From positions 701 through 64,700 of the forward strand of contig CAZPLK010000001.1 of assembly GCA_964587565.1 (NCBI GenBank): a stretch of 64,000 nucleotides of DNA. The letters run 5' to 3'. The notes beneath the pieces are model-generated. The model was not told where the DNA came from, searched no databases, and was given only the letters and a program-made list of their open reading frames with translations. Within the stretch, counting starts at the first letter, position 1. Every line of letters starts with the position of its first letter. The stretch is from an uncultured Muribaculaceae bacterium. GTDB taxonomy: Bacteria; Bacillota_I; Bacilli_A; RF39; UBA660. Position numbers and translations under genes: made by a program. Of this stretch, positions 991 to 20,231 are shown piece by piece.

Positions 991-1114
991 TTAGACATAA
1001 CTTACAATTAAATATATAAAATACTGACTAATGGTTATGTTAGTAATTAATTATTATTGGAATAATGAAGAGTAGCCAAAGTTGGTTGCTCTTTAATTAT
1101 TATAGGAGGTATTT

Positions 1115-2188: not shown

Positions 2189-2202
2189 GAAGGAGTGATG
2201 TT

Positions 2203-2352
2203 ATGAAGAAAGGTGAAAACAAAGTTAATTTTGATTTATCAACATTAAAATTAGAAGAATTAATAGATGTTTATAAAAACATAAATGACTTTCTTAAATT
2301 TTTAGATGAATCAAAAATTAAACAAAGTGAGAAGGTGGAAAATCCGAATGGC
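2203..2352 (+). CDS. Small hypothetical protein (49 aa), translationally coupled to the next gene
   Basis: Good RBS 'gaaggagtgatgtt' before the ATG. The stop overlaps the downstream start (atggctaa). Not in the supplied ORF track (too short). Confidence 0.3.
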
Positions 2353-4000: not shown

Positions 4001-4082
4001 GGAGTTTTTTTAATGTAAAAAAAGTCGAATTGTGTTATAATTATATTATAATAATACTATGGCTCTATAAAGGAATGATGTT

Positions 4083-7000: not shown

Positions 7001-7757
7001 TGAAATAATTGATACTTCTATTGAAAATAAAATATTAGGACTAGCTATTAGATTAGTAGATAGTGATGGAAAAATTATAGATAAAAAACATCTTAAAAAT
7101 TTAACATTTAAAATAGATAAAAACCAATTTTATCCAGAAAACGATAATGTAATTAGGGCAAAAATAGACAATAATTTTGAAAACTTAAACAAAACCTTAA
7201 CAGTTATAACAAATAAAACAAATAATACATTGAAAAATGGTGAATATTATTTGGAAATAAACACTTATTTGTCAATTGATGGATATTACTTTGATGAAAT
7301 AAGTAAAGACAAAATAAGTATACCAATTATAGTAGATAAAAAAGATTATATGCCATCGCATCTCTTTGATGTCCAAGTGGATGTGGAAAGTCAAATTATA
7401 AACAAAGAAGAAGAAAATGTGGACTTGAATTTTAATATAATACAAGGTGGCGAATTAGAAGAGCCAAACATAAGAATTTCTTTGTACCAAAAAAATCAAT
7501 TAACCGCTTATGATCAAAGTTACTCACTAATTGATTTAGATGATTATATAACTAACAATTTAGAAATAACAAGTCCAAATGTATACTATTTATCAAAAAA
7601 ACCTGTTGAATATACCGAAAAGGAAAAAAACATTAATGAGTACACTTTGAATATAAAAACTAATTTATTAGAAAATCACTCATATAAATTTGTGTTTGAT
7701 TTATATGATAATAATATAAAAATTAGTTCATTAGATAAATATTTCATTGTAAAATAA
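4083..7757 (+). CDS. Large (1224 aa) N-terminally anchored or secreted surface protein with parallel beta-helix-type repeats followed by beta-rich (probably Ig-like) domains
   Basis: N-terminal 'K-rich + IIILVCIIFLLLISIPTMA' signal/anchor. 'GSKENPFLITNGSELAHFSEQ' followed by 'FKGHFNGNSFSIFGFYL' and repeated 'N.G.I.......GGLIG' blocks ('SSGLIGTSIDSLTITNAYNKGAINSENKGAGLIGVIEQS') are typical of adhesin-like beta-helix/GLUG repeats. Confidence 0.55.
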   Translation: MVKGNIKTNNIKKVNYIIILVCIIFLLLISIPTMARFKNRNTLKRVTTWDGSVAKNYRSGDGSKENPFLITNGSELAHFSEQLETNNYLDIYFELNNDIIINEGIFKYDANNGILYIKDNITYYVDHDTNKYYKTKERDGEVIGTINTMKSFDNFKGHFNGNSFSIFGFYLSDEISNELAPFTNLNGNINNLYLENTMIYGGNYTSGVVSVANNSELENIFSSGYVVGNKDYTLNEKIITLPNIEETLSNDELIKNVELPNKIPLIHSDIKNISITGKVDLLNKCDQITLFVNDVEIEKAGEFELELNNEISKNLNFKLVSQCNEETNIKITNLQYNVKYNHSATAGIIALSHNNKLKNIINKSEVYGEFISSGLIGTSIDSLTITNAYNKGAINSENKGAGLIGVIEQSDDVIINKSFNEGNINLEDNIGLISNIYNVDNMIVQNSFNTANTNYLINTIQYSVVNFENVFYTTGLTPIKDGIYNGMINVTFLENLKDKEFLTNYLYFEEFDEIENISEGKKVWIFEEESLPILYIDDLNKPLVNINALTYSWNNYSTSLNGYKFSKNITFNIEEANELNKVENIYYYISNTSEPLFKEELNQISKWETYNDIVQIKEEGIYVIYAKIIDINGNVFYINTDALVLDSTGITLNISYKDFSWSEFSNDLKQIYIYEPEILNVSYNSVISSITNAQYYISNEQLTSKELDQITDYGWNDLEDDILVSNVGNNIVYVKLIDNFGYVTYANTDKIYMDSYINSKTLLGRGVKDYLNKDYNINTKSSITLTYKYLNEEASDDAEYSHNLITSSLLPKNTIITLIDNIKEKVYTYQIPTDEDYYNYNKSCESNDGECYKYATYPFTLFKEVGIANKPFVEESYFVAGKIEENFDVIIDFSKTNITENLTNVKVKLEKTNNNIYITTNDKNIKTFNVLQDSNYNLKINTDYEDGPILYNTDSVTNINLTGGVKYFKTNNTEIIDTSIENKILGLAIRLVDSDGKIIDKKHLKNLTFKIDKNQFYPENDNVIRAKIDNNFENLNKTLTVITNKTNNTLKNGEYYLEINTYLSIDGYYFDEISKDKISIPIIVDKKDYMPSHLFDVQVDVESQIINKEEENVDLNFNIIQGGELEEPNIRISLYQKNQLTAYDQSYSLIDLDDYITNNLEITSPNVYYLSKKPVEYTEKEKNINEYTLNIKTNLLENHSYKFVFDLYDNNIKISSLDKYFIVK

Positions 7758-7768
7758 GAGGTGATTTA

Positions 7769-8314
7769 ATGAAACGTAAAATATATATAATTTTCTTATT
7801 TCTCTTTGCATTAACACTAATGTCAGGGATTACATATTCTATATTTCATTCAAACATTAATTTAAATTCTGTTGATCAAAATGTTGCAAAGTTTATTTTT
7901 AATTCTGAATATGTAGATGAAATAAAGTTGCCGCTTATTGATTTAAAACCGGGTGATAAGGAAGAATTTTTATTTAACGTTAGTAATTATGATAATGAAA
8001 AAACTAGTGATGTAATAATTGAGTACAATTTAATTATAAAAACTTATCATTTCTTACCTTTAAATATTGAATTATATAAAATTAATGAAGATAATGAAGA
8101 AAAAATTTTATCATGTGATGAAACTTTTTCACGAAATGAAGATAATTATTTAATATGCAATACGGATGATTTTTATTTAGATTATAATATAGAAACAATG
8201 GATAATTATAAATTAATCGTCAAATTCCCAAAAGAATTTAATAGTGAAAAATATGCAGGATTAGTTGATTTTCTTGATGTTGAAATTAAAAGTAGACAAA
8301 AAATTGTAAATTAA
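7769..8314 (+). CDS. TasA/camelysin-family secreted protein (181 aa)
   Basis: Signal peptide 'IYIIFLFLFALTLMSGITYSIF'. 'IDLKPGDKEEFLFNVSNYDNEKTSDVIIEYNL' aligns with B. subtilis TasA 'LSNLKPGDKLTKDFQFENNGSLAIKEVLMALNY' (identical 'LKPGDK'). Confidence 0.65.
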   Translation: MKRKIYIIFLFLFALTLMSGITYSIFHSNINLNSVDQNVAKFIFNSEYVDEIKLPLIDLKPGDKEEFLFNVSNYDNEKTSDVIIEYNLIIKTYHFLPLNIELYKINEDNEEKILSCDETFSRNEDNYLICNTDDFYLDYNIETMDNYKLIVKFPKEFNSEKYAGLVDFLDVEIKSRQKIVN

Positions 8315-8326
8315 GGTGGTGCTACG

Positions 8327-9226
8327 TTGAAAAAAAAGAAATATTTTTATTTAGGATTATTTACAATCTTAATGTTTGGATTAATATATTACGGTATTAC
8401 ATTTGCTAAGTATGTTGCAGACATTACACACGATTTTTATTTGCAATCAAAAGGATTTTATTTTACAAGTGATCAACTAAATGAGGAAACTCTTATTAAC
8501 TACAATAATATATGGGATGGTAATAGTGTTTTCTTTAATGTAAAAAACTATTTAAACGAATCTGTAATCTCAACATATGACATTTATTATGATGTTATAT
8601 GTGAAATAGAAGGTGACGCTTCAAACTATTATGAGTGTGATTTAAATGATTCAGGACAAAGTCATATTAATGGCGTACTATCAAATTTTCAAAGTTGTAT
8701 TAATGAAACAAATGATTCCGTTGATGTTAGTCAATTTAATAAAACAGAATGCGAATTAAGTGGTTATAATTGGGTTAATCATAAAATTGTTAAAGATTTA
8801 TTTTTTAATGTAATTCCTCTTAGTCAAAATTATAAAATGGAAAATATATCCGTTCAAATAAAAATAAAGAGTACAAAACCTTATAAAAAGAAATTAATAG
8901 GGCAGTTTAATTTAAGCAAAAGCAATCTTGAAGAAAGTAAGATAGTTTTAAATTATAATAATTATTCAAAATTTGATGAATTGATAATTTCAAATTCACA
9001 TGATGTTTCAAAGTGTGCAGACATTTCATGGGATCCAAACAATATCGTACTTGGTTCAAACGAAAAGCAATTCAATTCATATGTTGTGGAAAGCAATGGA
9101 TATATAAGTGGAATAAAATTAATGTTAAATCCTAAAATGAGCCAAAGTATTATATTTTATAAAAAAGATTTTTCGTTAAACTATAATGTAAATGAGTTTA
9201 CATTAACTGAGTTAGATGAGTGTTAA
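8327..9226 (+). CDS. TasA/camelysin-like secreted protein (299 aa), TTG start
   Basis: RBS 'aaggtggtg'. N-terminal signal followed by 'YGITFAKYVADITHD'. Cys-rich beta-type composition. Related to the minus-strand gene at 16878-17504 ('YSRYVADATGN'). Confidence 0.5.
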   Translation: MKKKKYFYLGLFTILMFGLIYYGITFAKYVADITHDFYLQSKGFYFTSDQLNEETLINYNNIWDGNSVFFNVKNYLNESVISTYDIYYDVICEIEGDASNYYECDLNDSGQSHINGVLSNFQSCINETNDSVDVSQFNKTECELSGYNWVNHKIVKDLFFNVIPLSQNYKMENISVQIKIKSTKPYKKKLIGQFNLSKSNLEESKIVLNYNNYSKFDELIISNSHDVSKCADISWDPNNIVLGSNEKQFNSYVVESNGYISGIKLMLNPKMSQSIIFYKKDFSLNYNVNEFTLTELDEC

Positions 9227-9294
9227 AAAATTATATTCAATATATTTGGATTGATAAGTGGAATAAAGTGTGTTAATATGAAAGTGGTGGTATA

Positions 9295-9831
9295 ATGAAA
9301 ATATTAAAAGTTGTTAAAAATGTTATTGTAACTACATTAGTAGTGCTGTTTTTTATCTTTGCACTATCAATGACTATGTTATTATTAAACTATAACCAAT
9401 ATGGTGTAACTCAGTTTGAAAATAAATCATTAATTATTATTAGAGATGAAATATCTTCTGATAAATATAAAAAAGGAGATCTTGTTATTACTGAAGCCGG
9501 AAGAGTTAGTAACTTAAAAAAAGGTGATGAATTGTTTGTATATAGATTAAAACGTGATAATACTGTTGAAATTGATTTAGGTATTGTTGATTATGTAGAA
9601 AATGATTCAGTTACATTTGTTAATGGCGAAACTTACAATTCGGAATTTATAGCAGGTAAATCAACAAAGATATATAATGATATAGGAACGACCTTATCTT
9701 TTGTAACTTCAAAATGGGGATTCCTATTTCTAATATTAGTTCCAAGTTTTCTCATTTTTGTATACCAAGTTTATGCATTAATTATTGAAATAAAATATGG
9801 TGAAGAAGATTACTTGTATGATTATGTGTAA
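9295..9831 (+). CDS. SipW-like (TM - beta domain - TM) protein lacking the Ser/His catalytic dyad; probable inactive signal-peptidase paralog
   Basis: Same topology and 'GDLVI...KKGDELFVY' blocks as the two SipW homologs downstream. No 'SGSM' serine box and no 'THR/THE' histidine box. Confidence 0.4.
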   Translation: MKILKVVKNVIVTTLVVLFFIFALSMTMLLLNYNQYGVTQFENKSLIIIRDEISSDKYKKGDLVITEAGRVSNLKKGDELFVYRLKRDNTVEIDLGIVDYVENDSVTFVNGETYNSEFIAGKSTKIYNDIGTTLSFVTSKWGFLFLILVPSFLIFVYQVYALIIEIKYGEEDYLYDYV

Positions 9832-9849
9832 ATTATTACATTTAATATA

Positions 9850-9877
9850 GCACGTTTATTAAAAACGTGTTTTTTTA
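9850..9877 (+). terminator. Rho-independent terminator after the first surface-protein operon
   Basis: Stem cacgttt / aaacgtg (9851-9857 / 9863-9869), loop attaa, followed by an 8-T run. Confidence 0.6.
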
Positions 9878-9909
9878 ATATTTCAAAAAAAATAAAATGT
9901 CTTAATTTG

Positions 9910-9938
9910 TTGTAAAAAACTAGCTAATATGGTAAAAT
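9910..9938 (+). promoter_or_regulatory. Sigma-A-type promoter (TTGTAA - 17 nt - TGgTAAAAT, extended -10) for the SipW-fusion/McrB-like operon
   Basis: Read directly: -35 at 9910-9915, TG at 9930-9931, -10 TAAAAT at 9933-9938. Gene start at 9976 with RBS 'ggaaggg'. Confidence 0.5.
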
Positions 9939-9975
9939 TTATATATGGTAGAGTCTAAAGAGTAGGAAGGGTACT

Positions 9976-12327
9976 ATGAATAATAATAAAAACGTTGTTG
10001 TTGAAAAAGCAATTAATTTTTTATTGAATATATTGATTTTCATGTTTAGCATATTTTTATTGATATCTGTTTATATTGGATTTCAAACAAGAATTATCGG
10101 TAACGACTATGCTAATTTTTTTGGATATTCTTTGTTTGAAGTGCAAAGCGGAAGTATGGAAGATGAAATCAAAATTGGTGATTGGATTGTTGTAAAGCTA
10201 ACTAAAAACGTTGATTTTAATGATATTATAACATTTGAATTAGACGGAGAATTTGTAACACATCGCATTGTAGAGGTATATAAAGGTACTTTTGTTACAC
10301 AAGGGGATGCAAATAATAAAAAAGATGATCCAATAGATCAAAGTCAAGTAGTTGGTAAAGTAGTAAAAGTTTTAGGAGGGTTTGGCATTATAAGAAAGAC
10401 ATTATTTAATCCAATAGTATTATTATCACTTATAATTACGTTATTGTTGTTTAACTTTGCTTTTAAAAGTAATAAAATTAGTATAAACAATGAGTTAATA
10501 AATAATTTGTTAGAAAGTTTAGGTAATTTCATTGAAAACATTACTAATAAATTTAATAAATTGCTCAATAAAGACGAAATAAATGAAAGTTTCTTTGAAA
10601 AACAAAATTTAAATAGTGGTTTTATGAGTATAGAAAAGCAAGATGATTTTTTTGAAACAAAAGAATATGAAAAATTAGAAGAAGAATTAAGTAAAACCGC
10701 ATTGTATAGAGTAGTGACGGTTGATAAAGATAACGTTAAAGAAGATTTTAAAGTTTTAACGCCACAAAAAAAGACAGTAGAACAAATAGAAGAAGACTTG
10801 AGCAAAACATCATTGTACAGAATTATATCAGCTAATACAGAAGATGTCCCAAACAAATATAAAAACACTGACGTCAAAGTAAGTAGTAAAACTCAAACTC
10901 AAAAATATGCAGAAATTGAGGATGAATTAGGGAAAACTTCAATTTTCAGGGTAATATCAGTTGATAACGAAGAAGGCGAAAATGAAAAGCAAGAAAAGAT
11001 AAGCGAAACTTCACTGCATCGCTTTGTATCGGTAAATAATAATGAAACTGATAAAACTATTTCTGAAATCGCAAAACATGAAATAAAAGAGGAGCAGAAG
11101 CCTGAGAATGTAAAAATTAATCAAGAAGATAAAGAAATTACAAAAGTGGAAAAAGAAGATGATGAACACACTAAAGAAGAAGGGTTAACGGATATTAATT
11201 TAGAACTATTAAAAAGTAAAAATAGCAGACGTGGTAAAAATATTATTGATAAAACAATGATTATTAAAAAAGAAGAGTTAGATGAATTAATTGATATTTT
11301 AGTAAAAGACGATCCTACATATGTATACCGCGCAAGGGTTAAAGACAGATTCATCATATCTTACACTGATGCAAAATATTATAATTATTATGGTGCTGTT
11401 GAAATCGAAACACGTGGCAGGAACTTAACATCTAGAATAAAAGTTATTATTAAAATCTTAACTGAAGATATAATAAAAGAATACAAAGGCAAAGATAAAA
11501 ATTACCATGAAATTATTGAAAAATACTTAAAATTATTTACACTAATTGCCGATTTAGAGCAAGCAAGGGATTCAGCAACTACTGTAACAGCAAAAAAGAA
11601 ATTATATAGCAAATACCTTAATGATTATTTTGGCAATGTTAAACAAAGTGAAATAAATAATTTGATTGATGAAATTATGGATGTTCAACAAAGATACTTG
11701 GATACTATTAATTACTTTTTAGATCAACTAAAAACGAATGCTTTCGTACTGACTCAAAATAAAATAGTAGGTGCTAGGAACATGTTTGGACTATCACTTG
11801 AACATAATATTACGTTTAGTAAAGTTTATAGCGATTACATTATTGATAAAACATATACCGAGGGAATTGTGGCGGAAGATAAAGTATCAGTATTACTATC
11901 ACTGTTATCAGTACAATTAGTTGATGATATGTTAAATGCCAACTTTGACAACAAATATGTTGTTCATATACCAGTAAGTTTATACGGGAAAAAGCGCAAA
12001 TTGGCAAGTACTTTAAGACTTATAGATAATGAATATGCTAAAAGTAATATTATAATTTTAATTGAATATAAAGACTTATTAAAAAACAGACAAGTTGTTA
12101 AAGAATACAAAAAATCAGGATATAGATTTGGCTTAACATTTCATAAAAATGATAATTTATTAAAAAAGGATCACTCGTTATTATATATAGTAAATTGTTT
12201 CTTTATAAACAGAAGAACAAATGATATGAAAAAGATAATTTTATCAATACCAGAAGAATTATCGGATAAAATTATATCAGATGATGTTATTACTAAAGTG
12301 GGTGATTTTGGGGGTGAATCAACATGA
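9976..12327 (+). CDS. Type I signal peptidase SipW (archaeal-type S26) fused to a 4x tandem-repeat linker and a large cytoplasmic C-terminal domain resembling a degenerate EAL domain
   Basis: N-terminal TM. 'SGSMEDEIKIGDWIVVKL', 'VTHRIVEV' and 'TQGDANNKKDDPID' match the B. subtilis SipW Ser/His/GDAN boxes. A second TM ('PIVLLSLIITLLLFNFAF'). Four repeats of 'EE[ED]L[SG]KT[AS][LI][YF]R[VI][VI][ST]V[DN]'. C-terminal domain has 'YGAVEIETRG', 'ILIEYKDLL', 'GYRFGLTFHKND' and 'LLYIVNCFFINRR', which resemble the EAL blocks GvEALlRW / lEiTE / DDFGTG / lKIDrsF. Confidence 0.6.
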   Translation: MNNNKNVVVEKAINFLLNILIFMFSIFLLISVYIGFQTRIIGNDYANFFGYSLFEVQSGSMEDEIKIGDWIVVKLTKNVDFNDIITFELDGEFVTHRIVEVYKGTFVTQGDANNKKDDPIDQSQVVGKVVKVLGGFGIIRKTLFNPIVLLSLIITLLLFNFAFKSNKISINNELINNLLESLGNFIENITNKFNKLLNKDEINESFFEKQNLNSGFMSIEKQDDFFETKEYEKLEEELSKTALYRVVTVDKDNVKEDFKVLTPQKKTVEQIEEDLSKTSLYRIISANTEDVPNKYKNTDVKVSSKTQTQKYAEIEDELGKTSIFRVISVDNEEGENEKQEKISETSLHRFVSVNNNETDKTISEIAKHEIKEEQKPENVKINQEDKEITKVEKEDDEHTKEEGLTDINLELLKSKNSRRGKNIIDKTMIIKKEELDELIDILVKDDPTYVYRARVKDRFIISYTDAKYYNYYGAVEIETRGRNLTSRIKVIIKILTEDIIKEYKGKDKNYHEIIEKYLKLFTLIADLEQARDSATTVTAKKKLYSKYLNDYFGNVKQSEINNLIDEIMDVQQRYLDTINYFLDQLKTNAFVLTQNKIVGARNMFGLSLEHNITFSKVYSDYIIDKTYTEGIVAEDKVSVLLSLLSVQLVDDMLNANFDNKYVVHIPVSLYGKKRKLASTLRLIDNEYAKSNIIILIEYKDLLKNRQVVKEYKKSGYRFGLTFHKNDNLLKKDHSLLYIVNCFFINRRTNDMKKIILSIPEELSDKIISDDVITKVGDFGGEST

Positions 12328-13850
12328 ATACATTTTTTAGATTTTTCTATGAATTTATTTCAGTTTTTATTTCGGGTATTACATTAGTAATAAAAGGATT
12401 GATTGCAGGGGTTATTCAAATTATAAACGTTAGAGAGTATCAAAAAATTATTAATAGTTATAAAGAAAACTTTAAAACCTCTCAATGGATTTTAGTTGGA
12501 TTTTCGATCGCACTTTTAGTAATCATTATAGCTCTTGTAATATTTTTAATAATTATAGGAATTAGAAGGTTTTTAAGATTTAGAAGAACAAGATTAAATC
12601 AAGAAGATTTATTAGATGAAATTGCAGATTTAAACGATCAAGTTAGGAAGTTAATGAAGGAAAAAGATGAAATAATGGCAATGAAAGTATCAAAACTGGG
12701 TCTTAAACCTGGTGAAGAAGGTTATGAAGATAGCTTAGAAGAGTTAGAAGATGGTGAAATCGATATGTCCAATATTAGATTTCCAAAATTACATAAAATT
12801 GATCAAGATTATAAAAACTTTAAAGCAAGAAATTATAATAATAACTTTACATTAGAAGAATTAGTTGATAATTTTCAAGCTTATGCAGCTAGTCAATTAA
12901 AGCTTTATTACGAAAAATCTTTATTAAGAGCATTTATAGGTGGTTTATCAACTGGACGTTTAATTATATTACAAGGTATATCCGGAACTGGTAAAACATC
13001 CTTAGCTTATGCTTGGGGGAAGTTCGTTAACAAGGATTCTTGTGTGGCATTTGTTGAACCGTCATGGCGAGATAAAACTGAATTTCTAGGTTATTTTAAT
13101 GAATTTACAAAAAAATTTAACGAAACAGATGTATTAGCAGAACTTTATGTCGCATCGCTGGATGATGATGTTCATACGATTATTCTTGATGAAATGAATA
13201 TAGCACGAGTAGAATATTATTTTGCAGAAATGCTTTCTATTTTAGAAATGCCATCACGTGATGAGTGGATTATTGAATTGGTTACAAGTTCTTGGAAAGA
13301 AGATCCGGAAAGGATTGTGGGTGGTAAATTAAAACTACCTGGTAATTTATGGTATATCGGTACCATTAATAATGACGATTCAACGTTTATGGTTACTGAT
13401 AAAGTTTATGACCGTGCGATGCCAATAGATATTAATAATCGTATTGATCCATTTGAAACAAGAGAACAAGAAGCGATGAGTATCAATGCTAGTTATTTAG
13501 AAAATTTATTTGAAGAAGCTACAAAAACTCATCCAGTGTCGGCGGAAAATTTACAAAAAATTAAAGACATGGATGATTATGTAATAAAACATTTTAGAGT
13601 TGCTTTTGGTAACAGAATTATGATGCAACTACAAACATTTGTACCTGTTTATGTTGCTGGAGGTGGTTCCGAAGTAGAAGCGATAGATTACTTTATTGCA
13701 CGAAAAATATTCCGTAAATTCGATCAATTAAATTTTGCACTTATCCGTAATGAAATCGATCCGTTTATTGAATATTTAAACAAAGAATTTGGAGACGGTG
13801 TTATGAAAGAATCAATTGATTATTTTGAATTATTAAAAAAATCAATGTAA
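12324..13850 (+). CDS. Membrane-anchored McrB-like AAA+ GTPase (AAA_5 family) with an N-terminal TM hairpin and a coiled coil
   Basis: 'LIILQGISGTGKTSLAYAWGKFV' matches McrB 'IILQGPPGVGKTFVARRLAYLL'; 'FVEPSWRDKTEFLGYF' matches 'QFHQSYSYEDFIQGY'; 'IILDEMNIARVEYYFAEMLSILE' matches 'FIIDEINRANLSKVFGEVMMLME'; 'NLWYIGTINNDDSTFMVTDKVYDRAMPIDI' matches '[31 protein letters not shown]'. N-terminus 'WILVGFSIALLVIIIALVIFLIIIGIRRFLRFRR' is a TM segment. 4-nt overlap with the upstream gene. Confidence 0.7.
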   Translation: MNTFFRFFYEFISVFISGITLVIKGLIAGVIQIINVREYQKIINSYKENFKTSQWILVGFSIALLVIIIALVIFLIIIGIRRFLRFRRTRLNQEDLLDEIADLNDQVRKLMKEKDEIMAMKVSKLGLKPGEEGYEDSLEELEDGEIDMSNIRFPKLHKIDQDYKNFKARNYNNNFTLEELVDNFQAYAASQLKLYYEKSLLRAFIGGLSTGRLIILQGISGTGKTSLAYAWGKFVNKDSCVAFVEPSWRDKTEFLGYFNEFTKKFNETDVLAELYVASLDDDVHTIILDEMNIARVEYYFAEMLSILEMPSRDEWIIELVTSSWKEDPERIVGGKLKLPGNLWYIGTINNDDSTFMVTDKVYDRAMPIDINNRIDPFETREQEAMSINASYLENLFEEATKTHPVSAENLQKIKDMDDYVIKHFRVAFGNRIMMQLQTFVPVYVAGGGSEVEAIDYFIARKIFRKFDQLNFALIRNEIDPFIEYLNKEFGDGVMKESIDYFELLKKSM

Positions 13851-13863
13851 AGGGTGATTAAAA

Positions 13864-14997
13864 ATGTCTAAGGCCATAAAGGTAAGTATAGATGAAAAAT
13901 TAAGGAAAAAAAGTAATACATTTAGCAACAGAATAAAATCAGATATGTACTTTAAGGGTGAGGTTTCTGGCGAATCAATTTCATTTGAATGGTTGGATAT
14001 AATTGAAGAAGCTTGCCCTTACTTAGATAATGTTATTAGAAATCCTAGAGTTGCACTTATTACTGAAGAAGAAATTGTTAAAATAGAAAAAGCTAAAAAG
14101 GTCTCTGTTGCTAGTGTTAAAAATTTAGCTAAAAACACACAATACATTGATAAAATTGATAAAGTAACAGAAGATGTGCAACCGTCACGACTTTTAATTG
14201 AAAGACGTGAAGAAACATATAATACATACGAAAACAGATTTCTTTTTACAGTTGTAAAATTATTAATAAGATTTGTCGCTGACAAAGAAGAATCATTAAA
14301 AGAATTGATTATGAAAAAAGATAAAGTTATGGAATATGCTGCTGTTACTAACACAGACACAGAAAGAGTTAATATTAAATTAAATATTTCTACAAGTGAA
14401 ATACCAAAAGAAGTTATGGCTGATGCCTATGAAAATGAAATTAATAATGTTAAAAATCGTTTAAAAGAAATTAATGCATATTTTTCTATGTGGCAAAGAA
14501 GTGATTTTATGACTTCATTAGAAAAAGCTAGAGTAACTCCGGTATCGCCTCCAATAAGAAAGACAAACTTAATCTTAAAAAATCCTAATTTTCAAATGGC
14601 TACAAAATTATGGGAGTTTTTGAGAAATTACGAAGATGAAGAAAAAGATGAAACAAAAGTTGATTTGGAAACAACTGGAAATAAAATGTTAAAAGGAATA
14701 TTGGATGATATGTTTTTAACAAATTATTTTGTTTTAGATTCAATAAAAGCTGATAAAAGTGCTGAAAAGGAAAAATTAACTAAATATGCTGTCTTAATGT
14801 TAACACAACAAGTTAGACGTGCAATTCAACTATTAATAGATAGTGGGGTTGAAATTTCAGATGAAGAGATAATTAGTATGATTTCAGCTGAAATTAAAGC
14901 AGACGAAGGGAAAACAACAGCAGATAGTTCTGATGTTAAGAGAAAATTTAAAAAAGCTGTTGATGATTATATAGAGAAAATGCAAGATTATTTGTAG
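13864..14997 (+). CDS. Hypothetical cytoplasmic partner of the McrB-like GTPase (possible McrC-N-terminal/DUF2357-like activator; no nuclease motif)
   Basis: Starts 13 nt after the GTPase gene with RBS 'aagggtga'. Contains 'ETYNTYENRFLFTVVKLLIRFV', which resembles the 'NxxENRF' block seen in McrC-like partners. No PD-(D/E)xK motif found. Confidence 0.3.
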   Translation: MSKAIKVSIDEKLRKKSNTFSNRIKSDMYFKGEVSGESISFEWLDIIEEACPYLDNVIRNPRVALITEEEIVKIEKAKKVSVASVKNLAKNTQYIDKIDKVTEDVQPSRLLIERREETYNTYENRFLFTVVKLLIRFVADKEESLKELIMKKDKVMEYAAVTNTDTERVNIKLNISTSEIPKEVMADAYENEINNVKNRLKEINAYFSMWQRSDFMTSLEKARVTPVSPPIRKTNLILKNPNFQMATKLWEFLRNYEDEEKDETKVDLETTGNKMLKGILDDMFLTNYFVLDSIKADKSAEKEKLTKYAVLMLTQQVRRAIQLLIDSGVEISDEEIISMISAEIKADEGKTTADSSDVKRKFKKAVDDYIEKMQDYL

Positions 14998-15005
14998 GTG
15001 GTAAA

Positions 15006-15569
15006 ATGAATATAATAAATGAAAATAAAATTTTAAAAATAATAATAAAAATTATTAAAACAGCTATTTTGATTTTTTTATTAGGATTTATACTAGTTGT
15101 TTGCTTACAGCGCTTTAGCAATAATAAGATTTCTTTTTTTAAATATCGAATGTTTATAGTAGTATCAGGCAGTATGTATCCGGTTTATGACATAGGAGAT
15201 GTATTAATAGCTAAAGAAGTCAAACCTTCAACGATTAAAGTTGGTGATGCAATTAGTTATGAAGGTAAAGTAGGAGATTTAAAAGGCAAAGTAATAACAC
15301 ACGAGGTTATAAAAATAGATTATGATAAAGATTCCAATAAATATAAATTTCATGCAAAAGGTCGTGCAAACGTTATTGAAGATCCAATTGTTTCAGAAGA
15401 ACAATTATATGGAATAGTAATCCATAAAACTTTGTTACTGTCAATGATTTATAAAATAATAGGTACTCAACTGGGATTTTTCTTAGCTATTATAATACCC
15501 TTATTATATATATTTACCTCTGAGATTATTGGGTTTTTACTAGAACGTGAGGCTAAAAGAAGAGGTTAA
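15006..15569 (+). CDS. sipW: Type I signal peptidase SipW (archaeal/eukaryotic-type S26)
   Basis: N-terminal TM, 'FIVVSGSMYPVYDIGDVLIAKEV', 'VITHEVIKI', 'AKGRANVIEDPI', C-terminal TM; matches the B. subtilis SipW boxes. Confidence 0.7.
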   Translation: MNIINENKILKIIIKIIKTAILIFLLGFILVVCLQRFSNNKISFFKYRMFIVVSGSMYPVYDIGDVLIAKEVKPSTIKVGDAISYEGKVGDLKGKVITHEVIKIDYDKDSNKYKFHAKGRANVIEDPIVSEEQLYGIVIHKTLLLSMIYKIIGTQLGFFLAIIIPLLYIFTSEIIGFLLEREAKRRG

Positions 15570-15595
15570 AAAACGTTAGAAAAGGGGAGATGTGA

Positions 15596-16834
15596 ATGAA
15601 AAACAAGTATAAAGTTTACTGGCGTATAAATTTATTGTCGTTATTTTTTATCATCTTATCATTCATATCGGTTACATTGGCTTGGTTTGCCTATAGTGGA
15701 CTTTCTAATGTATCAACTGAAATTGGAGTAAAAGCTTGGTATATTACACTGGAAAAAGACGGTGAAATGATCTCGAATGATATTGTTATATCATCATCGG
15801 AAATATACCCAGGTATGGAAACATTGACAGAGACAGTTAAAATTCAAAATTTAGGAGATTCAGATGCAAATATAAGGTATTCAATTTTATCAGCAAGAAT
15901 ATTAGATCAACCTGAAAATAATTTTGTTGTAAATGACAAAACTGTTACAAGTGATTATGTTGAGGATCAATTATCGCATAGTTATCCTTTCAAAGTTAAT
16001 ATAAATTTATCAAAAGGATATGTTCTTGCAAAAGGTGATGAAAGTTTTTTTGAAGTTTCAATATCATGGCCACTTGATTCTGGTGATGATGGGTTAGATA
16101 GTTATTGGGGAAGTGAAGCTTTTAAGTTTCAACAAAGTGAAACAAATAGGAAAAGTGCTAATCCAGAATATCAAAAAAAACAACCTATACAAATAGTAAT
16201 TAGTGTAATCGCTGAACAAGATGTTGGTGATGAAAATTCAAATGATCCCAACTTTAATTTGGGAGATCAAATATTATTTGATGTAATTAATAATAAATCA
16301 TGTAAAGAATTAAGTGAGACTTGTATATCAACGTATGTAATTGATAGTAATAATAAAATAGCAAATAACAAAGTAACGCTTTTACCAACCCCTAGAAAGA
16401 CTTATTTAAGTGGTATTTATAGTAATTACAATTCTTTATTAAAGGGGGTAACAAGTGATTGGAATGTTGAAACACGGGCATTATATATTGAAGATATATT
16501 AAACGTAATATCAACAGATATTTTTAATTCAAAACTATTAAGTGATGAAATAACTGGAGTAGTAATCGGTGATTTAAAGTATCCGAATCGAATTCAAACA
16601 GAAATAGAAAAAGTAAAAAGTACAAATGGTTATTATAATTTTCGCAATGAGAAATTCCAATACATTTCCACAGCAAACTGTTATTGGATTAACAGTAGAT
16701 ATAATTCATCTAAATCATTTGCTATTAAGAGAGTTAATGAAGAAATTTCAAAAGTGTATGGTTTAGATAATAATTCTACATGTAATGTTGTCCCTGTAAT
16801 TACAGTGGATAAAAACAAAATAAAACAGGATTAA
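15596..16834 (+). CDS. TasA/camelysin-family secreted protein (412 aa) with SipW-cognate signal
   Basis: 'ISVTLAWFAYSGLSNVSTEIGVKAWYITL' aligns with CalY 'GGGTFAYFSDKEVSNNTFAAGTLDLTL'. 'VKIQNLGDSDANIRYSI' aligns with 'LLQNSGSLTIKDVKL'. Confidence 0.65.
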   Translation: MKNKYKVYWRINLLSLFFIILSFISVTLAWFAYSGLSNVSTEIGVKAWYITLEKDGEMISNDIVISSSEIYPGMETLTETVKIQNLGDSDANIRYSILSARILDQPENNFVVNDKTVTSDYVEDQLSHSYPFKVNINLSKGYVLAKGDESFFEVSISWPLDSGDDGLDSYWGSEAFKFQQSETNRKSANPEYQKKQPIQIVISVIAEQDVGDENSNDPNFNLGDQILFDVINNKSCKELSETCISTYVIDSNNKIANNKVTLLPTPRKTYLSGIYSNYNSLLKGVTSDWNVETRALYIEDILNVISTDIFNSKLLSDEITGVVIGDLKYPNRIQTEIEKVKSTNGYYNFRNEKFQYISTANCYWINSRYNSSKSFAIKRVNEEISKVYGLDNNSTCNVVPVITVDKNKIKQD

Positions 16835-16850
16835 CAAATCCTGTTTTACT
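16822..16850. terminator. Bidirectional rho-independent terminator between convergent genes
   Basis: 10-bp stem aaaacaggat / atcctgtttt, loop taacaa (contains the stop codon), T-rich on both sides. Confidence 0.6.
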
Positions 16851-16877
16851 TTGCAATATTGAATTATTTATGCCATT

Positions 16878-17504
16878 TTATTCAAATATTTGCTTAAATG
16901 ATACATCAGCTTTAATTTGTAATGTTATGTCTTCCGTAGCTGCCAAATGTCCGATCATTGAATCGTCTTCATCATTCATTAATTCCTCTTCACCCTCATA
17001 CCATTCAAAAAATATTCTTATAGTAAATGGTTTAAATTTAAAGTCCTCTTCTTCTTTGTTAAAGATTAATGCCTTTTTAATTTCTTTATCGTTTAAATTT
17101 ATTATTTCTATCGGATCATCTTCAATATAAGAGTCAGGTAAGATTGCATATTTAGTAATTATTAAATCAGGTATATTTTCATTTTGGACTTCTAAATTTA
17201 CTAAGTATTCAAACGATACTTCAACATTACTAGCATCTATCTTAATATCGAAATACCCTTTAGATGTTGGGGCGATTTTATTAGGCGCAATGTACTCGCT
17301 TTCTTCAATAATTGGTTCAAACATCAATGAAGATTCTGAGTTATTTGTAATATCTTCATTATTAACGAGTATTTGCCATTTAGCAAAAGTAGCCTCAATA
17401 TTCCCAGTTGCATCAGCAACATATCGTGAATATGTGGTACTCATAAGACAAAGACAAATGGATAAAGATAACATCCCAATTAAAAATTTTATTTTTCTAA
17501 ACAT
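16878..17504 (-). CDS. TasA/camelysin-like secreted protein (208 aa)
   Basis: Signal peptide then 'TTYSRYVADATGNIEATFAKWQIL', paralogous to 8327-9226. RBS 'aaaggagg' upstream on the minus strand. Confidence 0.5.
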   Translation of the reverse strand: MFRKIKFLIGMLSLSICLCLMSTTYSRYVADATGNIEATFAKWQILVNNEDITNNSESSLMFEPIIEESEYIAPNKIAPTSKGYFDIKIDASNVEVSFEYLVNLEVQNENIPDLIITKYAILPDSYIEDDPIEIINLNDKEIKKALIFNKEEEDFKFKPFTIRIFFEWYEGEEELMNDEDDSMIGHLAATEDITLQIKADVSFKQIFE

Positions 17505-17530
17505 ACTAACCTCCTTTGCTCTTAATTATA

Positions 17531-17559
17531 ATTATAAATCATCGAACAAAGATTGACAA
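17531..17559 (-). promoter_or_regulatory. Sigma-A-type promoter for the minus-strand TasA-like gene (TTGTCA - 17 nt - TATAAT)
   Basis: Reverse complement of plus 17554-17559 is TTGTCA; reverse complement of 17531-17536 is TATAAT; the spacer is 17 nt. Confidence 0.45.
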
Positions 17560-17767
17560 GAACATTTACATAAAAAACACAGACAAAGAGTAAACTTTAC
17601 ACTTCGTACGACACACTTTACGCAAAGGTGAGATGATTTGGAATTGTAATGAAGGAGAGTTGTAAACGAAAAGTCATATTACCCGGGAGCTTTACAGTTT
17701 AATTTGGTGGTAAAAAGATAAATGGGTACTTGAATTTAATTAGCACAGCGTTAAAACATGTTATCAA

Positions 17768-17797
17768 TTGACAAAAATGCCATTAATGTGCTATATT
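17768..17797 (+). promoter_or_regulatory. Strong sigma-A promoter (TTGACA - 18 nt - TGcTATATT) upstream of the small ORF and tyrS
   Basis: -35 TTGACA at 17768-17773; extended -10 TGcTATATT at 17789-17797. Confidence 0.5.
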
Positions 17798-17819
17798 ACT
17801 AGCACATACAAGGTGAAAG

Positions 17820-18002
17820 GTGATAAGTATGAAAAGCATAAAAATTAATTATAATATTTTCAACCATAAATATAAAGTTTATCCTTTAACTCCAGTTCAT
17901 AGATCAGAAAACAATAAAAAAGAAAAAAATGAAGAAAAATTTGCTGAAAAACTTAGTAAAAAAAAGATTAAAACAAAAAATAAAACAGGAGGTTTAAAGT
18001 GA
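17820..18002 (+). CDS. Small lysine-rich ORF (60 aa) translationally coupled to tyrS (stop overlaps the GTG start); possibly a leader peptide or spurious
   Basis: RBS 'aaggtgaaaggtga' 5 nt before the ATG. Ends 'gtga' overlapping the tyrS GTG. Low-complexity K/N-rich translation. Confidence 0.2.
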   Translation: MISMKSIKINYNIFNHKYKVYPLTPVHRSENNKKEKNEEKFAEKLSKKKIKTKNKTGGLK

Positions 18003-19228
18003 AATTATTTGACGAATTAAAATGGAGAGGGCTTATAGATAACATAACTAGCCCGGAGCTTGAACAAAAATTAAATGAAGGATGTTTAACTTTTTATATA
18101 GGTACGGATCCAACTGGTGATAGTCTCCACATTGGACACTTATCATCTTTATTAGTAGCACAAAGGCTATTTAACGCTGGACATAAACCTATAATTTTAG
18201 TTGGTGGTGCAACAGGTTTAATCGGTGATCCTAAGCCAAGTTCAGAAAGGCCTATGATTACAAAAGAAAAATTAGACTATAATTATAAAATGTTATCTAA
18301 GCAAATTCAAGACTTATTTGAATTTAAAATGGTTAATAATTATGATTGGTCTAAAAATATTAATTTTATTGATTATTTAAGGGATTACGGAAAATATTTT
18401 AGTGTCAATTACATGTTAGCTAAAGATACTGTAAAAAAACGGCTTGAAATAGGAATTACATATACAGAATTTTCTTATATGATTTTGCAGGCACTAGATT
18501 TTTTATATTTATATGAAAATGAAAATTGTGTTATGCAAATTGGTGGTCAAGATCAATGGGGAAATATAACATCTGGAATAGAACTAATAAGAAAAAAAGT
18601 TGGTGGTCAAGCATATGGTTTTACAATGCCTTTAATAACTAAGGCTGATGGCGATAAATTTGGTAAAAGTGAAGGTGGTACAATTTGGCTGGATAAAACA
18701 AAAACATCACCATATGAAATGTATCAATTTTTAATAAATACCGAAGATTCAAAAGTAATTGAGTATTTAAAAAAATTAACATTTCTAAGTTTTGACGAAA
18801 TAAATAAATTAGAAAAAAGTTTAAAAGAAGAACCACACTTGAGATTAGCACAGCAGAGGCTAGCCGAAGAAATTATCACCTTTTTACACGGAAGTAATGA
18901 ATATAAAACAGCATTAAAAATAAGCGAATCGCTATTTAGTGGTGCAGTTAAAAATTTAAGTGCGGAAGAAATAACTGTTGCATTTAAAGGTTTGCCTAAC
19001 TTTAAAATTACAGAAAAAATTAATATAGTAGATTTTTTAGTGAAATTCGATATATGTTCTAGTAAAAGGGAAGCAAGAGAATTTTTAAAAAGCGGGTCCA
19101 TAACAATAAATGATAATAAAGTATTATCACTTGAAACTAATGTAGACAAAAACATGGCAATTTACAACAACTTTATAGTTGTAAGGAGAGGGAAAAAGAA
19201 ATATTTTTTAGGATATTTTGAAAGGTAA
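17999..19228 (+). CDS. tyrS: Tyrosyl-tRNA synthetase
   Basis: 'GTDPTGDSLHIGHL' (HIGH), 'KFGKSEGG' (KMSKS), C-terminal S4-like domain. GTG start with RBS 'ggagg'. Confidence 0.95.
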   Translation: MKLFDELKWRGLIDNITSPELEQKLNEGCLTFYIGTDPTGDSLHIGHLSSLLVAQRLFNAGHKPIILVGGATGLIGDPKPSSERPMITKEKLDYNYKMLSKQIQDLFEFKMVNNYDWSKNINFIDYLRDYGKYFSVNYMLAKDTVKKRLEIGITYTEFSYMILQALDFLYLYENENCVMQIGGQDQWGNITSGIELIRKKVGGQAYGFTMPLITKADGDKFGKSEGGTIWLDKTKTSPYEMYQFLINTEDSKVIEYLKKLTFLSFDEINKLEKSLKEEPHLRLAQQRLAEEIITFLHGSNEYKTALKISESLFSGAVKNLSAEEITVAFKGLPNFKITEKINIVDFLVKFDICSSKREAREFLKSGSITINDNKVLSLETNVDKNMAIYNNFIVVRRGKKKYFLGYFER

Positions 19229-19232
19229 CAAA

Positions 19233-20231
19233 ATGAAAAAAATAAAATTTTTAGCTTATAGCATAGCTAACATTAATTTAATTAATATGTTTAAAACTGT
19301 AAAACAAATTAGTAACAAAATAAATAAACCATATATAATTGTACTAATAGATGTAATTTGGTGTGGATTTAAATATCAAGCGGGTTATCATGATTATTTA
19401 GAGTTTGAGTTTTATAATTTAAATAATGAAGAAAGAAAAACTTATATAACAAGAGGAATTAATAACGAAATAATAAAAAGATTTAACGATAAAAGTAAAT
19501 GGCATTATTTTAGTAATAAAGCTTTATTTCATGAAAACTTTTATGATTTTACAAAGCGTGAATTTCTTTGCTTGCACAATAATATAAAAGAATTTGAAAT
19601 GTTTTTGCGCAAACACCAACAAGTAATTGCTAAACCAATTGAAGGTGAAGGTGGTGAAGGTGTTGAGATGATAATTTATAAATCAATTTCTGATATAAAC
19701 AAAATATATAATAAACTAGTTGAAAATAACCAGTTACTTATAGAGGAGTATATAAAGCAACATAAAGGAATGAATGAGTTATACTCTACATCAGTTAATT
19801 CATTAAGAATGTTTACTTTTATAAAAGATAATAATCCACACTTTTTACAGGCAGCATTAAAAATTGGGAATGGAAGTATTATTGATAATTTTGCTGGTGG
19901 CGGGATGTATACAATTTTAAACGATGAAGGAAAAGTAATTTACAGTGCAATTGATAAAAATGATAACATTTATAATGTGCATCCAGTTACAAATAAACAA
20001 ATAATTGGATTTCAAGTACCGTTATTTGACGAAGCTGTCGAGCTAGTTTGCGAAGCAGCTAAAATAATACCTGAGGTCGGTTATATAGGATGGGATGTAG
20101 CAATCAGTGAAAATGGCCCAGTTATTATAGAGGGTAATTGTTATCCAGGTGTTTTCCAAACAAAACCAAGTTTAAAAGAAGACAAAACAGGATCGTTGTT
20201 AAAATACAATGAAGTGATGAAATTGCATTAA
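19233..20231 (+). CDS. ATP-grasp family protein (sugar-transfer-associated ATP-grasp type)
   Basis: Glycine-rich 'KPIEGEGGEGV', 'GGGMYTIL' and a C-terminal 'GWDVAISENGPVIIEGN' ATP-grasp signature. ATG 19233 chosen over the track TTG at 19218. Confidence 0.5.
   Translation: MKKIKFLAYSIANINLINMFKTVKQISNKINKPYIIVLIDVIWCGFKYQAGYHDYLEFEFYNLNNEERKTYITRGINNEIIKRFNDKSKWHYFSNKALFHENFYDFTKREFLCLHNNIKEFEMFLRKHQQVIAKPIEGEGGEGVEMIIYKSISDINKIYNKLVENNQLLIEEYIKQHKGMNELYSTSVNSLRMFTFIKDNNPHFLQAALKIGNGSIIDNFAGGGMYTILNDEGKVIYSAIDKNDNIYNVHPVTNKQIIGFQVPLFDEAVELVCEAAKIIPEVGYIGWDVAISENGPVIIEGNCYPGVFQTKPSLKEDKTGSLLKYNEVMKLH

Follow-up and report, generated by a model that had tools for sequence, protein, structure and literature searches.

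A probable CoCoPALM locus in gut Bacilli pairs a nuclease-free, membrane-anchored McrBC-type GTPase module with SipW signal peptidases and candidate secreted substrates

Within the McrB-like GTPases, a signature variant that reads NxD and then D or E defines the CoCoNuT/CoCoPALM branch, and one class within it was named CoCoPALM by Bell et al. (eLife 2024; PMC11090510). These authors gave the class one paragraph in their section 7, suggested a link to pili and deferred the details to a later paper. No follow-up paper on CoCoPALM was found in our literature search, and two supplementary files of PMC11090510 make no mention of CoCoPALM, signal peptidase, FtsB or pilus. Here we describe a locus on contig CAZPLK010000001.1 (GenBank assembly GCA_964587565.1, GTDB lineage RF39) in which five genes, at 9976-16834, encode a SipW signal peptidase fused to an EAL-fold domain, a McrB-family GTPase, a McrC homologue, a second SipW and a secreted protein. 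The window is the whole 64,000-nt stretch analysed (27% G+C), and all positions are given in its numbering. An original prediction made from these letters had held that no system of such composition has been described, which is wrong because the CoCoPALM paragraph has been in print since 2024. The locus is very probably a CoCoPALM; the arrangement is not new as a class, and what the window holds is a well-resolved member of a named, uncharacterised one.

Three properties of the class can be recognised. The GTPase belongs to the NxD branch, both in the 150 best representatives of its family and in the window (INNDDST); next to it lies a McrC homologue (DUF2357), which in CoCoPALM usually comes with a coiled coil and which here matches PF09823 at 47.6 bits; and the pair is associated with proteins of the signal peptidase family, namely two TIGR02228-positive genes and a pseudo-peptidase. 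The last association is kept in the 82 loci that we compared and in a distant variant, L083. The five-gene unit and its signals are as follows.

9849-9877, + strand: intrinsic terminator ending the upstream operon (hairpin and T-run at 9849-9871).
9910-9938, + strand: promoter of the five-gene unit (TTGTAA, 17 nt, extended -10 TG.TAAAAT; 9/12 match, with TG).
9976-12327, + strand: gene 1, 783 aa.
12324-13850, + strand: gene 2, 508 aa, whose start overlaps the end of gene 1 by 4 nt; membrane-anchored McrB-family GTPase of the NxD branch (phmmer, PADLOC, AAA_5 in relatives, motifs).
13864-14997, + strand: gene 3, 377 aa, 13 nt after gene 2; McrC homologue consisting of the N-terminal domain (DUF2357) only, without nuclease (PF09823, E 1.7e-12).
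15006-15569, + strand: gene 4, 187 aa, 8 nt after gene 3; stand-alone signal peptidase of the SipW/endoplasmic reticulum (ER) type (TIGR02228, E 6e-19).
15596-16834, + strand: gene 5, 412 aa, 26 nt after gene 4; secreted protein, signal-anchor with T-L-A↓W-F (the arrow marks the putative cleavage point here and below).
16815-16854, no strand assigned: hairpin terminator common to gene 5 and the convergent gene d208 (18-bp stem and T-run).

The five open reading frames (ORFs), their coordinates, the 4-nt overlap and the gaps of 13, 8 and 26 nt are exactly those of the original prediction, and the promoter and both terminators lie where it had placed them. When a consensus scan was compared with shuffled sequence, it returned 3 terminator-like sites where 2.5 were expected and 75 promoter-like sites where shuffles gave 77, so that the scan alone is at chance level. 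The evidence for these signals comes instead from the spacer upstream of gene 1, aligned across 7 loci whose proteins are merely 40-63% identical. The TTGTAA-17-TG.TAAAAT promoter is invariant in this alignment while the spacer has otherwise diverged, the AGAGTAGGAAGG ribosome-binding site upstream of gene 1 is conserved, and 5' of the promoter every one of the 7 loci has a hairpin, its stem differing in sequence, followed by a T-run. Conservation across related loci shows the promoter and the upstream terminator to be real, and because promoter, ribosome-binding site and hairpin are conserved together, the five genes constitute, as judged from the DNA, a genuine transcription unit with its own promoter. 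The predicted self-contained operon thus stands as a single transcription unit but not as a self-contained system, since the conserved cluster exceeds the five genes and spans ~1115 to 17504, adding an upstream operon and a convergent gene.

Gene 2 is, as had been predicted, a McrB-family protein with N-terminal transmembrane (TM) segments. Hydrophobic, TM-like stretches at residues ~4-33 and ~50-80 are followed by an Arg-rich stretch and a coiled coil (~85-125), and the AAA+ GTPase core occupies residues ~190-400. A phmmer comparison with E. coli McrB (PDB 6hz4) aligned residues 194-380, spanning Walker A, Walker B and the signature (E 2e-4), and the PADLOC defence candidate PDC-M26A matches the GTPase core at E 1.4e-38. 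The AAA_5 relationship (PF07728) that had been put forward as a check is not seen in the window protein itself, for which a direct Pfam scan gave no match at E <= 0.1, but it is seen in 37 of 50 relatives (best E 1.2e-8). An exhaustive search retrieved 8101 representative clusters at E <= 1e-3, and 735 at E <= 1e-30. The signature of the best 150 representatives is T-[A/I]-N-x-D-[D/E]-S-T, in which the N and the first D are invariant in all ungapped sequences and the position after that D is occupied by D in 105 and by E in 34; Walker A, Walker B and the signature are conserved in the family. TM-like segments precede Walker A in 89 of these 150, and many of the nearest representatives are proteins of 700-870 aa without a TM segment ahead of the GTPase. 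The CoCoPALM GTPase has been described as joined to a TM and coiled-coil module homologous to FtsB, and we compared the N-terminal region with FtsB: by eye, LLDEIADLN...AMKVSKLGLKPGE of gene 2 is similar to LFAEIDDLN...ARNELSMVRPGE of FtsB, hhalign against verified E. coli FtsB aligned 22 columns with a probability of 1.7%, and Pfam DivIC matches one of 50 gene 2 family members (E 0.012).

The partner of this GTPase is gene 3, which matches PF09823 (DUF2357, the N-terminal domain of McrC) with 47.6 bits against a cut-off of 23.3. The same domain is present in 120/120 of the gene 3 homologues listed, nearly all of them 348-393 aa long. In an AlphaFold2 (AF2) model of gene 3, a long helix, a beta-hairpin and a further helix are inserted at residues 122-211, no beta strand occurs past residue 178, and the C-terminus is all-helical. 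A PD-(D/E)xK nuclease domain is absent from this model, and gene 3 matches no nuclease family in Pfam or PADLOC. Wider scans gave the same result, with no nuclease domain found by Pfam in 13 locus proteins (415 to 17504), by NCBIfam in nine proteins (7769 to 17504) or by PADLOC in the five operon proteins; nor was a HEPN or DNA-binding domain found in the operon (Pfam; gene 3 model). The original prediction, which had seen neither a nuclease nor a McrC partner, was right about the nuclease domain and mistaken about McrC, whose homologue is gene 3. Genes 2 and 3 are a McrBC-descended GTPase pair that has lost the nuclease and is anchored in the membrane.

The signal peptidases are found in three genes, one of them fused to the EAL-fold domain and one of them degenerate. 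The parts of gene 1 and the pseudo-peptidase are as follows.

9976-10455, + strand: gene 1 residues 1-160, SipW/ER-type signal peptidase domain between two TM helices (TIGR02228, E 1.7e-17).
10456-11172, + strand: gene 1 residues 161-399, acidic linker of variable sequence on the cytoplasmic side, bearing four L(S/G)KTxLYRxxxV(D/N) repeats.
10687-10725, 10798-10836, 10927-10965 and 10999-11037, + strand: the four linker repeats (regular expression).
11173-12327, + strand: gene 1 residues 400-783, cytoplasmic helical bundle and degenerate EAL-fold beta/alpha barrel (fold search).
9295-9831, + strand: u178, SipW-fold pseudo-peptidase (hhalign to the gene 4 SipW family).

Both peptidase assignments of the original prediction hold. 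The N-terminal domain of gene 1 scores 63.7 bits against TIGR02228 (cut-off 51.85), and its GSM, THR and GDAN motifs are kept in 120 homologues, with the catalytic Ser and His retained. Gene 4 scores 68.5 bits against the same cut-off, its S56, M57, T98 and H99 are invariant in 43 members, and its motifs mark it as catalytically intact, the canonical SipW that had been proposed. Both proteins fall below the 190-bit cut-off of the B. subtilis SipW equivalog. By analogy with the known topology of SipW, the active site of gene 1 is predicted to lie on the outer side of the membrane and the chain after residue ~162 to be cytoplasmic. The third gene, u178, differs from these two. Its family aligns over the full length (182 columns) with the gene 4 family (hhalign probability 99.1%, E 6e-19), the SGSM and THxV of SipW fall on non-catalytic residues, and no Ser or His is conserved in its 61 members; since its catalytic Ser and His are replaced, u178 is a pseudo-peptidase, one that nearly all related loci retain.

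The cytoplasmic part of gene 1 begins with the linker, in which the predicted four repeats were found by regular expression at residues 238, 275, 318 and 342. Linker occupancy and length differ between homologues, and the last repeat alone is conserved. The C-terminal domain had been called EAL-like, and the call is upheld at the level of the fold but not as a PF00563 profile match or as a set of conserved catalytic residues. The fold was found by a fold search of the structure model only: Pfam gave no EAL match at E <= 0.1, and the PDB sequence profile gave no EAL match and merely weak TPR-like noise. When the catalytic residues are mapped by strand order, which is not a structural alignment, the position that would correspond to the EAL Glu is E in 60/120 homologues and S in the window gene 1, and the one that would correspond to the Asn is Pro in 114/120. 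An active cyclic di-GMP (c-di-GMP) phosphodiesterase was rejected on the grounds that the domain has no profile membership and that the positions expected to be catalytic (EAL Glu, Asn, ExxE, DD, K) are not conserved. The most conserved stretch of gene 1 is instead HN..FSKVYSDYIIDKTY.EG..AEDK at residues 610-637 (11803-11886), in which many columns are invariant in 120 homologues, and this loop has a per-residue model confidence (pLDDT) value below 50 in the EAL-like model. Because it is at once the most conserved part and poorly ordered in the model, the loop may become ordered on partner binding, which suggests a possible partner-binding element.

To place these proteins in a genomic context, we turned to related loci. 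A genome scan gave at least 459 confirmed matches to gene 2, and 82 loci, each from a different species (80 from the scan and 2 through exact look-up), were compared after hidden Markov model (HMM) mapping of all their ORFs. The loci come from metagenome-assembled genomes labelled Bacilli, Mollicutes, Tenericutes, Clostridium sp. CAG:567, Firmicutes CAG:884 and Candidatus Coprovivens. Across all 82 the core order is invariant, running EAL-like, McrB, McrC, SipW, secreted protein and convergent secreted paralogue. Conservation of gene order on this scale far exceeds chance, and the five-gene synteny in other genomes that had been named as a decisive check is therefore present, the co-location of the genes not being accidental. 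The loci fall into two arrangements. In clade A (~47 loci, the window included) the order is u181, pseudo-SipW, SipW::EAL-like fusion, McrB, McrC, SipW, gene 5 (~410 aa) and the convergent d208. In clade B (~34 loci) it is pseudo-SipW, (d208-like, SipW, u181-like), a free-standing EAL-like protein of 304-354 aa, McrB, McrC, SipW, a short gene 5 (~200 aa) and the convergent d208.

The two clades thus differ in whether SipW and the EAL-like domain are fused (~47 loci) or separate (~34), and where the EAL-like gene is split off it still adjoins the McrB gene. One such free-standing protein (L062:8963-9970), which lacks a hydrophobic segment, matches the C-terminal domain of gene 1 with a probability of 99.3% (E 1e-20). 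In the manner of a Rosetta stone, the SipW::EAL-like fusion ties the peptidase to the GTPase module. A distant variant (P0251, L083 7028-11135) has a 629-aa TM-McrB that begins one base past the end of a 180-aa SipW-like gene; the next gene is 552 aa long, without a recorded DUF2357 match, no EAL-like gene lies directly upstream, and the variant adjoins hrcA-grpE-dnaK-dnaJ.

The locus also appears to be inherited vertically. Gene 2 is the most conserved protein of the set, with 57-79% identity, and the corresponding ranges are 25-63% for gene 1, 30-66% for gene 3, 30-68% for gene 4 and 23-64% for gene 5. For the GTPase, the three closest loci give identities of 74-79%, as compared with 72-76% for TyrS and 81-84% for RpsD. 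All three share the flanking tyrS and rpsD, and two of the three share an ATP-grasp gene as well; these common flanks argue for vertical descent. In the window the neighbours are the housekeeping genes tyrS, rpsD and ezrA. No relative of gene 2 was found on the viral contigs of IMG/VR, and plasmids gave matches to the GTPase core only, at <= 40% identity. Together, these observations are evidence that the locus behaves as a core envelope machine and not as a mobile defence island.

Around the core lies a set of genes most of which encode proteins with an N-terminal hydrophobic segment.

1115-2188, + strand: u357, membrane-anchored or secreted protein (N-terminal hydrophobic segment, then S-Y-A-W-F).
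2306-4000, + strand: u564, conserved cytoplasmic protein of 564 aa, first gene of the upstream operon.
4083-7757, + strand: u1224, very large secreted protein of 1224 aa (N-terminal signal-anchor and T-M-A↓R-F).
7769-8314, + strand: u181, small secreted subunit (G-I-T-Y-S↓I-F after the signal-anchor; LKPGD...F.F.N strand).
8327-9226, + strand: u299, secreted protein (signal-anchor followed by G-I-T-F-A↓K-Y; its place within the cluster is conserved).
16878-17504, - strand: d208, small secreted subunit, in every case convergent to gene 5 (signal-anchor followed by T-T-Y-S↓R-Y).

In six of the locus families (gene 5, d208, u181, u299, u357 and u1224) the N-terminal hydrophobic segment ends in [ST]-x-[AS]-x-[FYW], a motif present in 72-97% of the members that have such a segment, as compared with 25% of background ORFs. 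The counts are 64/74 for gene 5, 49/68 for d208, 43/53 for u299, 21/29 for u1224 and 33/34 for those u357 members with a hydrophobic segment. The six-family consensus T-(Y/F/L)-(A/S)↓x-(F/Y) is similar to the SipW site of B. subtilis TasA, GGGTWA↓AFND, and the mature TasA chain in PDB 8aur begins at A28. Because they have this TasA-like cleavage motif in common, the six proteins are plausible SipW substrates, with putative cleavage sites at the end of their anchors.

Several of these proteins are related to one another. The u181 and d208 families are paralogues (hhalign probability 95%, E 2.5e-8, 171 columns), and a weak relationship to d208 is seen for the N-terminal part of gene 5 (79%, E 1.7e-5). 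In gene 5, an N-terminal module of ~200 aa is conserved in both clades, and the difference in length (~410 aa in clade A, ~200 aa in clade B) is accounted for by a Cys-rich C-terminal extension of ~200 aa that occurs in clade A only and contains the invariant C236, C243, C362 and C396. The d208 gene is on the opposite strand in ~67 loci. The u1224 protein, conserved upstream of the core in clade A, ranges from 491 to 1572 aa among loci and is a candidate adhesin or tip component. The u357 protein has a conserved C-terminal W.EGQD.D motif, and u564 has an N-terminal hydrophobic segment in 0/28 members; both genes lie upstream of the core in clade A and downstream in clade B, always linked to it. 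None of u357, u564 and u1224 has a Pfam match. At the cluster edge, the ORF at 415-990 encodes 191 aa that include a bacterial surface Ig-like domain (PF16403, E 1e-14), and homologues of this ORF occur near the cluster in several loci. We also note that SipW is joined to a gene-5-like protein at L053 12656-13900 and to a u181-like protein in the ~374-aa ORFs of L067 and L069, and each of these cases may be a real fusion, a frameshift or an assembly artefact.

The original prediction had described gene 5 as a camelysin/TasA-like protein, and for this we found no support: it has no match in Pfam, NCBIfam or PDB profiles, and hhalign against verified TasA gave it a probability of 0.2%. The corresponding value for d208 is 2.6%. 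The best candidate is the u181 family, which aligns with TasA over residues 20-84 in the expected register (the cleavage motif, then LKPGD...F.F.N), with a probability of merely 18% and an E of 1.3e-3. Per-member scans of gene 5, d208, u181 and u299 against Pfam and NCBIfam gave no TasA or camelysin match, TIGR04088 was not found when N-terminal fragments were compared with NCBIfam, and searches with PDB profiles (gene 5, d208 and u181) did not find TasA.

How might a McrBC-type GTPase serve signal peptidases? In McrBC, insertion of McrC stimulates GTP hydrolysis, as seen in structures 6hz4 and 6ut6. In the mechanism that we propose, the McrB ring and the N-terminal domain of McrC, the part that engages the ring, would likewise form a GTP-driven switch or motor, here on the cytoplasmic face of the membrane. 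With no DNA-binding or nuclease domain in the system, the EAL-fold adaptor, and not DNA, would receive the output of the GTPase, and the adaptor would in turn be coupled to the outward-facing SipW, covalently in clade A and non-covalently in clade B. Turnover of GTP would then gate the cutting by SipW of the N-terminal anchors of u181, u299, gene 5, d208 and the 1224-aa protein, and cleavage would free these subunits for assembly into a putative surface fibre or pilus. Both the identity of the locus and this mechanism are supported by the 4-nt overlap of genes 1 and 2, the short gaps, the conserved signals, the gene order in 82 loci and the fusion, and we regard GTPase-gated SipW processing and surface-fibre assembly as about evenly poised between right and wrong. 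Somewhat more tentatively, we suggest that a McrBC GTPase pair may have been co-opted, through an EAL-fold adaptor on SipWs, as the cytoplasmic engine or timer of an unrecognised NTP-dependent surface-fibre pathway of Gram-positive bacteria, and that this may be a near-essential, vertically inherited envelope machine in reduced-genome gut Bacilli.

Several considerations weigh against such a role. TasA-family fibres assemble extracellularly by donor-strand exchange without an NTPase, as described in PMC9674648, and archaeal bundling pili likewise use donor-strand exchange according to PMC9245690; because TasA-type fibres assemble without an NTPase, the need for a GTPase is left unexplained. 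A homologous relationship between TasA and the secreted proteins is unproven by sequence, the 18% for u181 being the highest value reached. Furthermore, all relatives of gene 2 that have a known or proposed role belong to conflict systems (McrBC, CoCoNuT and the PADLOC candidate PDC-M26), and the published text on CoCoPALM is one paragraph without experiments (PMC11090510).

The third of these points leads to the best-surviving alternative, an anti-phage or conflict system in which a membrane-bound McrBC-like complex would sense invading nucleic acid or an infection cue and the SipWs would replace the nuclease as effectors, for example by shedding or remodelling a surface receptor fibre or by triggering abortive infection. 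The closest characterised relatives are indeed McrBC restriction and the predicted CoCoNuT defence systems, the GTPase core is matched by a PADLOC defence candidate, relatives restricted to that core occur on plasmids, and an integrase and a transposase lie <= 8 kb from the cluster in L001 and L002. However, scans of the operon found no nuclease, HEPN or DNA-binding domain, and the locus is single, syntenic and apparently vertical across hundreds of species, with a GTPase conserved like TyrS, unlike the patchy, fast-evolving defence islands. It also has no relatives on viral contigs, and its neighbours tyrS, rpsD and ezrA are housekeeping genes. We therefore consider an anti-phage role unlikely, and the evidence favours fibre assembly or regulation over it.

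The housekeeping-level conservation and vertical inheritance that count against defence would suit a second alternative, in which these reduced-genome Bacilli use the SipW paralogues as their main type I signal peptidases and the module of GTPase, McrC-like and EAL-like proteins is an AAA+-type regulator, or an extractor of uncleaved signal-anchored proteins, in general secretion and quality control. The locus has three SipW-fold genes, of which the pseudo-enzyme could be a substrate-holding factor. McrB belongs to the AAA_5 group, other members of which remodel proteins, and AAA_5 is matched by relatives of gene 2. Two points speak against a general role: the cluster always encodes six dedicated proteins that have the motif in common, which indicates a cognate substrate set, and a McrC-type partner is expected, by analogy with 6hz4 and 6ut6, to plug the pore of the ring, which counts against threading. 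We think this alternative quite unlikely. Still harder to credit, in our view, is an inside-out switch like that of LapD, in which the EAL-fold domain would be a cyclic-dinucleotide receptor and c-di-GMP binding, rather than GTP turnover, would control the external peptidase, with the GTPase as an accessory; a scan for GGDEF motifs found none. Finally, the idea that a degenerate restriction remnant came to lie beside a surface-protein island by chance, for which the missing nuclease and nothing else speaks, is refuted by the synteny data, that is, by the same order and orientation in 82 loci, together with overlapping or close genes, a fusion between modules and conserved regulatory signals.

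If GTPase-gated processing by SipW is correct, an AAA+ GTPase module known only from the restriction of nucleic acids would have been rewired to protein processing across a membrane. This would clearly exemplify a defence machine that has become a machine of the cell envelope, and it would be the first NTPase-coupled system of the SipW/TasA type. This largely uncultured lineage is abundant in the guts of humans and animals, and a conserved surface-fibre apparatus could bear on its attachment to host or partner cells. The split and fused SipW-EAL forms, the pseudo-peptidase and the repeated linker motif offer testable handles on a class that has so far existed in name only.

Beyond d208, the DNA between the cluster and tyrS (17505-17998) has a strong promoter-like site (11/12 match) at 17768-17797, and neither a T-box nor any other Rfam family was found there at E <= 1; likewise, no riboswitch or other RNA element matched Rfam at E <= 1 in window positions 1-22000. 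The tyrS gene itself (17999-19228) has a GTG start, and its end overlaps by 11 nt a sugar-transfer-associated ATP-grasp gene at 19218-20231 (PF14397, E 1e-48). The tyrS, ATP-grasp and rpsD neighbourhood is also found in the closest loci L003 and L005.

We finally compared the locus with the described systems that it resembles in part. With McrBC of E. coli and Thermococcus (PDB 6hz4, 6ut6, 7vsr and 6ut5) it has in common the AAA+ GTPase core, Walker A and B, the Asn/Asp signature and a partner with the McrC N-terminal domain. It differs in having NxD and not NxxD, in the TM segments and coiled coil that replace the DNA-binding N-terminal domain, and in a partner without PD-(D/E)xK. Canonical McrBC restriction was rejected for want of a nuclease and a DNA-binding domain and for the NxD signature. 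CoCoNuTs are of the same NxD GTPase branch and often have a McrC homologue without an active nuclease; however, they are cytoplasmic and always come with a HEPN or other nuclease, whereas the present locus has no nuclease and its GTPase is anchored in the membrane. As the locus scans found no accompanying HEPN or other nuclease, membership among CoCoNuTs was rejected as well.

On the side of the peptidases, the tapA-sipW-tasA operon of B. subtilis and sipW-bsaABC of C. perfringens (PMC9674648, PMC11580942) also place an ER-type SipW beside several small secreted proteins, and the cleavage motif of our locus resembles the TWA↓AF of TasA, but those operons have no NTPase, EAL-like protein or pseudo-peptidase. 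LapD/LapG of Pseudomonas (PDB 3pjt and 3pjx) differs in that LapD sequesters a separate protease and answers to c-di-GMP, whereas the protease of our locus is fused or neighbouring, it comes with a GTPase pair, and c-di-GMP machinery was not seen. The closest likeness is to CoCoPALM (PMC11090510), in the NxD GTPase with its N-terminal TM segments and coiled coil, the adjacent DUF2357 protein and the signal peptidases. The main text on CoCoPALM does not mention an EAL-fold partner or its fusion to SipW, a pseudo-SipW, a McrC wholly without the nuclease domain, motif-bearing secreted paralogues or housekeeping-like conservation in reduced-genome gut Bacilli. The locus thus appears to extend the published paragraph by an EAL-fold adaptor and its fusion, a pseudo-SipW, a McrC reduced to its N-terminal domain, a family of secreted paralogues with one motif, a conserved promoter and the behaviour of a core envelope machine.

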